DNA from: an uncultured Clostridia bacterium
GTDB taxonomy: Bacteria; Bacillota; Clostridia; TANB77; CAG-508
Reading direction: 5' to 3'
Length of the DNA stretch: 64,000 nucleotides
Assembly: GCA_948502395.1 (NCBI GenBank)
Contig: CAOPES010000006.1
Location: forward strand, 49,101 to 113,100
Positions 7,011-7,763 of the stretch are shown here, piece by piece. Below the pieces are notes generated by a model, which worked only from the letters and a program-made list of their open reading frames with translations, ran no database searches and was not told the DNA's origin. Every line of letters begins with the position of its first letter. The first letter of the stretch is position 1. The position numbers and the translations under genes are program-made.

Positions 7011-7040
7011 TTGACAAAGTGAATAAAAAAGTAGTATAAT
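7011..7040 (+). promoter_or_regulatory. Sigma-A-type promoter of the toxI-like RNA / toxN
   Basis: TTGACA at 7011..7016, an 18-nt spacer, and TATAAT at 7035..7040. Confidence 0.6.
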
Positions 7041-7046
7041 AAATAT

Positions 7047-7190
7047 ATTAAGAACAGCAATCATCTGATTACTAATAGGGAGTTCTTACTAAAAAAGGAC
7101 GATTTAAAATTAGGTAAAGTTCAAGCCTTATAAATGAACTGATTTAAAATTAGGTAATGCTTAGCCTTATAAGTAAGCAGTTTTAAAATA
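7047..7190 (+). ncRNA. Type III antitoxin-like repeat RNA (ToxI/antiQ-like)
   Basis: Tandem 40-nt units at 7101..7140 and 7141..7180 share gatttaaaattaggtaa and gccttataa. Their internal stems differ but stay complementary (agttca/tgaact versus tgctta/taagca). A degenerate unit precedes them and a partial unit follows. Confidence 0.7.
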
Positions 7191-7192
7191 AA

Positions 7193-7222
7193 GGGGCACA
7201 TTTGAAAAGATGTGCTCTTTTT
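7193..7222 (+). terminator. Terminator/attenuator between the repeat RNA and toxN
   Basis: Hairpin gcacat-ttgaaaag-atgtgc followed by a T-run, as in known type III TA loci. Confidence 0.65.
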
Positions 7223-7247
7223 GTATTCTTTTAAGAAAGAGGTAAAA

Positions 7248-7763
7248 ATGGAAGAATTATTATTTTACGTTGTTGATAGAAAATATATACAATATTTAAG
7301 TGAGTTCGAGAAACATATAAGTTACAATAAAGATGATATAGGGCATAGTAGACCATATTTAGGAATCGTGCTGAAAATAGATAATTATGAATATTTTGTA
7401 CCACTATATTCATATAAAGAGCATTACAAAAAATACAAAAATAATCCTAGTTTTTTCTTTGTAAAAGATAGAAAAGATAGACCACTGGCAATTATCAAAT
7501 TTTCAGCAATGATACCTGTACCTAAAACAACAAATGTAACAGAACTGTTAAGATATGGAGAGCAAGATAAAAAATATAAAGATTTAATATCAGCAGAATA
7601 TAGATACATCAATTCAAACAAAAGCGAAATTTATAAAAGAGCAAATAAAATGTATGTAGCAGTTACACAACATAAAAATAATTTTTTAAAAACTATTGCT
7701 TGTGATTTTAAACTATTAGAAGAAAAAAGTTTAAAGTACAAAGAAAATTATAGTAAAAATTGA
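7248..7763 (+). CDS. Type III toxin-antitoxin toxin, ToxN/AbiQ-family endoribonuclease
   Basis: The N-terminus FYVVDRKYIQYLSEFE, then PYLGIVLKIDNYEYFVPL, MIPVP and CDFKLLEEK parallel the AbiQ/ToxN pattern. RBS agaggt precedes ATG 7248. Confidence 0.8.
   Translation: MEELLFYVVDRKYIQYLSEFEKHISYNKDDIGHSRPYLGIVLKIDNYEYFVPLYSYKEHYKKYKNNPSFFFVKDRKDRPLAIIKFSAMIPVPKTTNVTELLRYGEQDKKYKDLISAEYRYINSNKSEIYKRANKMYVAVTQHKNNFLKTIACDFKLLEEKSLKYKENYSKN

Follow-up and report, generated by a model that had tools for sequence, protein, structure and literature searches.

We found that the window (the whole 64-kb stretch of DNA presented above) very probably holds a functional type III toxin-antitoxin system, a chromosomal toxIN cassette of ~0.78 kb from an uncultured gut Clostridia bacterium with low GC content. 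toxIN (ToxIN/AbiQ) is a known family; the window copy adds a member to it and is not a new type of system, and among toxIN loci it is typical and intact. All elements described here lie on the + strand of the window at 7011-7763, in the order promoter, leader of ~60 nt, two tandem repeat units, partial unit, terminator, ribosome-binding site (RBS) and toxin open reading frame (ORF). Promoter, repeats, terminator and toxin in this order define the layout of type III toxin-antitoxin systems. The features, with the upstream edge set by comparison with a related locus (L002), are as follows.

6976-7010, + strand: upstream edge of the conserved cassette (BLASTN block shared with L002)
7011-7040, + strand: sigma-70-type promoter, -35 box 7011-7016 and -10 box 7035-7040 (12/12 consensus positions)
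7056-7073, + strand: predicted 5' leader hairpin, AGCAATC, loop ATCT, GATTACT (RNAalifold, 33 distinct leaders)
7074-7108, + strand: unit 0, partly degenerate first antitoxin unit (covariance model, 33.1 bits)
7109-7148, + strand: unit 1, 40 nt in the predicted processing register (covariance model, 59.8 bits; covariation)
7149-7187, + strand: unit 2, 39 nt in the predicted processing register (covariance model, 45.1 bits)
7188-7226, + strand: residual further unit (AAAATAAAGG) that passes into the predicted intrinsic terminator (terminator scan, folding)
7236-7242, + strand: RBS AAAGAGG, 5 nt before the ATG (sequence; GAGG conserved)
7248-7763, + strand: toxN, 171 amino acids (aa) plus stop, ToxN/AbiQ-family endoribonuclease toxin (Pfam, PADLOC, PDB, fold, ratio of non-synonymous to synonymous substitution rates (dN/dS))

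The toxin ORF had been listed as 7212..7763 from a GTG, but the true start is almost certainly ATG 7248, since AAAGAGG precedes this ATG and homologues align from the first residue; the GAGG of the RBS is conserved in the orthologue alignment. GTG 7212 was rejected as a start, being within the terminator stem and lacking an RBS. The first-pass annotation, made from the sequence alone, had described the ORF as ToxN/AbiQ-like and advised a search with the ToxN hidden Markov model. That search was positive: the product matched ToxN_toxin (PF13958) at 146.7 bits against a cutoff of 25, with 157/159 profile positions covered, and it also matched the AbiQ model of PADLOC (9e-42). Sequence matches were found to four solved ToxN/AbiQ proteins, the Bacillus thuringiensis structure 4ATO (best, 8.8e-24), 2XD0, 4GLK and 7D8O. 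We found the same four as the top PDB matches of Foldseek (template-modelling score (TM) 0.76-0.81, root-mean-square deviation 2.5-3.0) for an AlphaFold2 model built on 33 homologues, whose predicted local distance difference test score (pLDDT) is 87.8 and predicted TM (pTM) 0.86. Profile and model together point to a ToxN/AbiQ family protein with the ToxN fold. Pfam assigned the ORF to ToxN only, with no match to CptN, and the fold match to CptN of Eubacterium rectale (4RMO) was weaker (TM 0.61, E 2.7e-3, 15% identity), which places the locus outside cptIN. No second ToxN gene was found in the window.

The published active-site residues of ToxN are K33, T52, S53 and K55 in the E. coli and Pectobacterium atrosepticum numbering (PMC8860590), and they align with R35, Y54, S55 and K57 of the window toxin, the Ser and the second Lys being identical. 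R35, S55 and K57 are invariant in 33 homologues, and Y54 is invariant across the clade. The Lys-to-Arg change at the K33 position also occurs in E. coli clusters 4 and 5 (PMC8860590).

Upstream of the toxin, Tandem Repeats Finder reported repeats at 7101-7189 with a period of 39, 2.2 copies, 82% matches and a score of 115. The 17-mer GATTTAAAATTAGGTAA occurs exactly at 7101-7117 and 7141-7157, 40 nt apart, and is the sole exact direct repeat of at least 15 nt at 20-80 nt spacing in the window; GCCTTATAA is also common to both units, so that both segments described as constant by the first-pass annotation are present. Its tandem 40-nt repeats hold for the first copy (7101-7140, 40 nt) but not for the second (7141-7179), which is 39 nt and lacks the spacer A between stem and GCC. 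Within each unit the elements are ordered AGGU, stem-b 5' arm, GCCU, stem-b 3' arm, which is the arrangement of an H-type pseudoknot. In unit 1, stem a joins AGGT (7112-7115) to GCCT (7125-7128) and stem b joins AGTTCA (7118-7123) to TGAACT (7135-7140), followed by the 3' tail GATTTAAA up to a predicted AA^AU cut between 7148 and 7149. In unit 2, stem a joins AGGT (7152-7155) to GCCT (7164-7167) and stem b joins TGCTTA (7158-7163) to TAAGCA (7174-7179), with the predicted cut between 7187 and 7188. Direct reading of the sequence confirmed the compensation between these two stem-b pairs that had been noted before: 3/6 pairs are changed on both sides (A-U to U-A, U-A to C-G and C-G to U-A from unit 1 to unit 2), and all are still Watson-Crick.

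A covariance model of related units matched 7074-7108 (33.1 bits, E ~1e-4), 7109-7147 (59.8 bits) and 7149-7186 (45.1 bits), and nothing else credible in the window. Downstream, a partial unit at 7163-7189 is 81% identical to 7124-7150 and runs into the terminator; hence, the degenerate units previously suspected on both flanks are real. Unit length (39-40 nt) and number (2.2 copies by Tandem Repeats Finder, three by the covariance model) lie within the toxIN range. AAAU motifs occur at every junction (7106-7110, 7146-7150 and 7185-7189), and by analogy with the AA^AU and GAA^AU cleavage by P. atrosepticum and E. coli ToxN (PMC8860590), the units would be processed in an AA^AU register. Each repeat is predicted to form a pseudoknot of two interleaved stems with single-stranded tails.

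The protein search returned 189 homologues. Nearly all of these come from metagenomes, and the majority are 70-99% identical. For the RNA we used 58 related loci from a scan of GTDB species representatives, all 58 of which are from gut metagenome-assembled genomes (MAGs) labelled uncultured Clostridia or Clostridium. The order of elements seen in the window recurs in these 58 loci, whose upstream regions form three groups. Clade 1 has toxins 63-92% identical to that of the window and units of 39-40 nt; clade 2 has toxins ~50% identical and 36-nt units of the form AGG-AAAA-CCCU-U-GCCU-UAAGU-AGGG; and the outlier L057 has a toxin 42% identical, with ~51-nt repeats (GAAAATTCGGTTAGGAACGAGCCGTTGAGTTAATCTCATAAACGAGTTCCCT...) upstream of its toxN at ~2740-2900, a length near the upper end of the published toxIN range. 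Clades 1 and 2 share the layout and spacing of the window, with the first full unit ~97 nt after the -35 box in nearly all.

Covariation was scored in 42 distinct clade-1 units against a shuffle control (n=500) without correction for relatedness. We found the two-stem structure to be 93.4% paired, compared with 25-49% when the 3' partners were slid. Cells with changes on both sides numbered 48, and the observed covariation score was reached by 0/500 shuffles. Compensatory change occurs in 4/6 stem-b pairs, and stem a is near-invariant in clade 1, with only U-G/U-A variation. Pair counts across both clades were made by an explicit helix search in each unit: among 80 distinct units, the first stem-a pair is A-U in 68, C-G in 3, U-A in 3, G.U/U.G in 3 and a mismatch in 3, and stem b has at least 10 different fully complementary arm pairs. 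Where stem a is changed to CGG/CCG or UGG/CCA, the 3' tail stays the same, which favours the pseudoknot over a nested fold. The nested minimum free energy (MFE) fold of single units, which pairs UUAGGU with AUUUAA, was rejected, since it is CCU, and not the tail, that follows the changes at the first base of AGG. Hence, the covariance analysis of repeats from homologous loci, which the first-pass annotation had proposed as a check, supports a two-stem pseudoknot.

Both parts of the module are also under purifying selection. Against 24 clade-1 loci, toxN has a dN/dS of 0.06-0.17, and units 1 and 2 are 87-99% identical to their relatives while synonymous sites of toxN differ at 18-69%. Since the units are far more conserved than the neighbouring synonymous sites, selection acts on the non-coding repeats as well as on the protein.

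Unit 0 followed by only one full unit is the state of the clade-1 relatives L019, L028, L032, L034, L052 and L058, in which the surviving single unit is of the unit-1 or the unit-2 type. Copy number thus shifts by whole units while leader and terminator stay fixed. Two MAGs carry a clade-1 and a clade-2 module together (L014 and L039 in CAOKRC01, L006 and L048 in CAJMRU01); the paired modules have near-identical promoters and leader hairpins and different unit sequences, with 40-nt units in the clade-1 and 36-nt units in the clade-2 module. This suggests that two ToxIN pairs, possibly non-cross-reacting, coexist in one genome in each of these two MAGs.

The promoter proposed earlier matches the consensus throughout (TTGACA, an 18-nt spacer and TATAAT), and transcription would start near 7047. 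TTGAC and TATAAT are kept at equal spacing in nearly all related loci. Between terminator and ATG we found no comparable promoter-like site, the best there matching 9/12 consensus positions; a single predicted promoter upstream of the repeats would serve both genes, as in toxIN. The terminator hairpin, likewise proposed earlier, is well formed, with a 14-pair stem at 7190-7221 followed by a T-run; the scan expects 0.1 such sites by chance, and the folding energy is -16.8 kcal/mol (z = -6.3). A hairpin of -10 to -24 kcal/mol stands at this position in 59/59 loci examined. The element is a predicted Rho-independent terminator between repeats and toxN, again as in toxIN.

Two parts of the locus were missing from the first-pass annotation, the 5' leader hairpin (7056-7073) and unit 0 (7074-7108). 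From the 33 distinct leaders of both clades, RNAalifold predicts a leader hairpin of 6 pairs, with compensatory double changes at 4, and the helix is 98% paired across orthologues. The stem of unit 0 joins GTTCTT (7082-7087) to AAGGAC (7095-7100) with one G.U pair; it is 98.8% paired across orthologues, in the conserved form GTTCTT with AAG(A/G)AC. The pseudoknot partner of AGG (7077-7079) is cut to CT in the window and is CCT in most relatives, so that the AGG...ACCU pair of most relatives is reduced in the window, L001 and L002. The 5' side of unit 0 lacks the A-rich AAAU junction motif; in a module that operates as ToxIN does, unit 0 would probably not be cut away from the leader hairpin. 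In a Firmicute, hairpin and unit 0 may reasonably be guessed to shield the 5' end against exonucleases. We regard these two parts, and the fixed identity of each unit by position, as minor variations.

A bolder idea, which we regard as improbable, is that the units form a position-specific set which two toxin clades, in more than 30 species, have kept: unit 0, capped by a hairpin and without a 5' cleavage site, and units 1 and 2 with stems of their own, not interchangeable, whose divergence would be selected against mispairing or recombination between neighbours. One transcript would then supply the three RNAs of a closed 3:3 ToxIN triangle, with unit 0 as a nuclease-protected, long-lived founder. 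If true, the position-specific units would make a defined hetero-RNA assembly, in contrast to the homo-oligomeric ToxI complexes described so far.

Compared with the published family, the window locus is mid-range for toxIN in repeat length, copy number and toxin size: toxIN repeats are 31-62 nt long (mean 38.1) in 1.9-5.6 copies (mean 2.8), and the mean toxin length is 168 aa, with most loci chromosomal (Blower et al. 2012, PMC3401426). The best match in both sequence (8.8e-24) and fold (TM 0.81) is ToxIN of B. thuringiensis pAW63 (4ATO), at 32% identity. Like the window locus, the systems of B. thuringiensis pAW63 and B. cytotoxicus are of Firmicute origin and carry some three short units followed by a terminator and toxN. 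In the B. cytotoxicus plasmid locus, 34-nt units are repeated 3.1 times with only 73% matches; as in the window, the first unit is degenerate and the units are non-identical with compensatory stems (GCCU/AGGC and ACUC/GAGU). Bacillus ToxIN differs in its 34-nt units (39-40 nt in the window), in having no leader hairpin, so that the repeats begin right after the promoter, and in being plasmid-borne whereas the window copy is chromosomal. Its reported cleavage is AAA^AA (PMC8860590).

Toxin family and fold are also the same as in the window for ToxIN of P. atrosepticum (2XD0) and E. coli (7D8O). These toxins share the catalytic Ser and Lys with the window toxin but are only ~25% identical to it, and T52 is Tyr and K33 is Arg here. 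The units of P. atrosepticum are 36 nt in 5.5 copies, compared with fewer units of 39-40 nt in the window. The locus of the E. coli IncX4 plasmid pU90-1 has 4.0 units of 36 nt, TCTAGGTGA-(UUCGC/ACCGC)-U-ACCUUAAGU-(GCGAG/GCGGG), and its motif AAAU-U(C)-AGGU-GA-stem-U-ACCU-UAAGU-stem' has two interleaved stems ordered as in the window. The A-rich AAAU junctions of the window fit the AA^AU and GAA^AU sites at which P. atrosepticum and E. coli ToxN cleave (PMC8860590).

PADLOC labels the window toxin AbiQ, and the fold match to AbiQ of the Lactococcus lactis AbiQ/antiQ pair (4GLK) has a TM of 0.78 at ~24% identity; the active-site strand is LSYK in AbiQ and YSYK in the window toxin. L. lactis antiQ also has few repeats (~2.8 x 35 nt). 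For AbiQ, a phage-defence gene on a lactococcal plasmid, the abortive-infection (Abi) phenotype has been demonstrated, whereas for the window toxin the link to that phenotype is one of homology. CptIN and TenpIN are type III systems with the same promoter-repeat-terminator-toxin layout and are also found in gut Firmicutes, and cptIN repeat lengths (40-48 nt; PMC3401426) overlap those of the window.

The motif AAAUU-(A/U)GGU...stem...(A/G)CCU...stem'...A-rich is common to the window and the annotated toxIN loci of E. coli and Bacillus. On this comparison AAAUU-xGGU...ACCU, and units that are non-identical with compensatory stems, are traits of the family and not a peculiarity of the window.

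BLASTN of the window against L002 gave a single block of ~775 bp at 89.8% identity (window 6976-7750, L002 2728-3501). The cassette of L002 lies directly between an APH-like kinase gene and a GntR gene, and the genes that intervene in the window are absent there. In the window, a flavin reductase gene precedes the cassette and ThiF, TSCPD, DUF4406-like and macro genes follow it; loci of other species have unrelated neighbours, among them an amidase and a GH94 gene. Since the same block occurs between different genes in different genomes, the cassette behaves as a small self-contained block in chromosomal surroundings that are not a defence island. The identical toxin protein was found in 33 blocks of a metagenome assembly collection and, among the contigs listed, always with a flavin reductase-rubredoxin gene on one side and a ThiF-family gene on the other. 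Identity to plasmid- or phage-annotated ToxN does not exceed 37%. Decoy pseudo-ToxI or cassettes carried by phages were sought in IMG/VR by means of the unit pattern, which gave 3 matches; these were judged to be chance, since all lie in coding DNA with no covariance-model match and no ToxN nearby.

The toxin family and fold, the layout, the stem support and the selection on RNA and protein were all observed at the window locus, and the following mechanism is proposed by analogy with characterised ToxIN systems. The constitutive-looking promoter would drive a transcript from near 7047 that consists of the 5' hairpin, the hairpin-capped unit 0 and full antitoxin units of 40 and 39 nt. Most transcripts would end at the terminator, which would set the RNA:toxin ratio and leave antitoxin RNA in excess, and the read-through transcripts would be translated from the RBS into the ToxN endoribonuclease. 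ToxN would cut the precursor at its A-rich junctions (7108/7109, 7148/7149 and 7187/7188), and each released unit would fold as an H-type pseudoknot with a constant stem a (AGGU:GCCU) and a unit-specific stem b. The toxin would be neutralised by being held on the single-stranded unit tails in a closed, inactive RNA-protein complex. When the supply of labile RNA falls, for example during phage infection, free ToxN would cleave cellular and phage RNA, leading to cell arrest or death. Such a phage-defence role by abortive infection is suggested by homology to AbiQ and to P. atrosepticum ToxIN.

Several observations weigh against a functional toxIN module. The Rfam ToxI family RF02519 (gathering score 50 bits) has no match in 6900-7900 even at E <= 10, and the only Rfam matches in that interval at this threshold were chance ones far below gathering scores (Plastid-psbA-1 3' UTR, CRISPR-DR51 and mir-46). 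In comparison, the B. cytotoxicus positive control scored 59.4, 47.1 and 38.6 bits. RF02519 is a narrow model of 34-nt Bacillus-type units that also misses annotated E. coli toxIN units (tested: window, L067, L068); the window RNA is outside this narrow family, yet appears ToxI-like by all sequence-based tests run. An NCBIfam scan of the toxin gave no family match either. Catalytic T52 has Tyr (Y54) as its counterpart, at a position that is variable in the family (Leu in AbiQ, Phe in L057). In the RNA, stem a has been partly lost from unit 0 of the window, and one position of the leader hairpin is a C.A mismatch (7058/7071). Orthologous clade-1 units barely vary, stem b of unit 2 being invariant and 100% paired in 29 orthologues, so that covariation among orthologues is weak and the covariation support comes mostly from the comparison of paralogous units and from the second clade. 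The neighbours of the cassette are housekeeping genes and not a defence island or prophage, because of which a phage-defence role is only an analogy.

This last point bears on whether the pair, if working, serves abortive infection at all. It could instead be a selfish addiction or genome-stabilisation module or a stress-linked growth brake, which we consider unlikely but by no means negligible. The cassette lies among genes for AdhE, a kinase-like protein, flavin reductase and ThiF with no neighbouring defence genes detected, it is small and self-contained between different genes in different species, and such a role would parallel the plasmid retention published for B. thuringiensis ToxIN (PMC4615649). 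However, the closest characterised relatives, P. atrosepticum ToxIN and AbiQ, are phage-defence systems, PADLOC calls the toxin AbiQ, and the two roles are compatible with each other. We consider it very unlikely that the role of the repeats is confined to cis control of toxN, by a structured leader or attenuator, with no processed antitoxin acting in trans. Their position between promoter and toxN, followed by a terminator, would suit such a leader, and the whole leader has nested MFE folds of moderate stability (z = -2.9), but covariation backs the pseudoknot stem and not the nested alternative. Furthermore, the ToxI-type motif and the order of the two stems are shared with loci whose relatives have demonstrated processed antitoxins (PMC8860590), an A-rich AAAU site is kept at each junction, and unit number changes between 1+1 and 1+2 with the rest of the leader unchanged, which fits modular antitoxin units.

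Some of the same observations, namely the partly degenerate unit 0 and the Tyr at the T52 position, together with a frameshift in the neighbouring macro-domain gene, could be taken as signs that the locus is what is left of a toxin-antitoxin system that has lost its activity and is decaying. We hold this to be extremely improbable: the ORF is full length, with the identical protein in 33 metagenome-assembly blocks, promoter, terminator and RBS are all intact, and the dN/dS of 0.06-0.17 and the conservation of the non-coding units far above that of synonymous sites speak for continued selection. Y54 is invariant across the clade and hence is not a recent lesion.

What the locus adds is a well-supported toxIN subfamily from uncultured gut Clostridia; our understanding of type III systems is unchanged by it. 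The variation between units, and between two co-occurring clades, gives support for a ToxI-type pseudoknot from sequence comparison. toxIN repeats have been described as "nearly identical", in contrast to those of tenpIN (2025 survey, PMC12283969), a description that the window, E. coli and Bacillus loci modestly qualify. Since the units are non-identical with compensatory stems, the toxin would recognise the constant stem, loops and tails, and the sequence of the variable stem would play no part in recognition. As both Rfam ToxI and NCBIfam miss the locus, annotation pipelines would miss the antitoxin RNA and, at best, name the toxin; with RF02519 detecting only Bacillus-type units, most toxIN antitoxin RNAs would go unannotated.

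Two further genes downstream of the cassette were recorded. The macro-domain gene at 9334-10129 (+) is split into overlapping ORFs at 9334..9678 and 9632..10129, and skipping C9655 (context CTT-C-GGA) gives one macro ORF of 265 aa that reads ...IVNAANSSGLGCFTPCHKCIDN... through the macro domain. CGG, the next zero-frame codon at C9655, is presumably a rare one given the 29% GC of the genome, and the same split occurs in three independent metagenome assemblies; the gene could be a pseudogene or contain a +1 frameshift site. A gene with RhuM and Fic domains lies at ~12391-13344 (L059 13144-14097), ~5 kb downstream of the cassette, where it follows a GntR regulator and an ABC-transporter pair.

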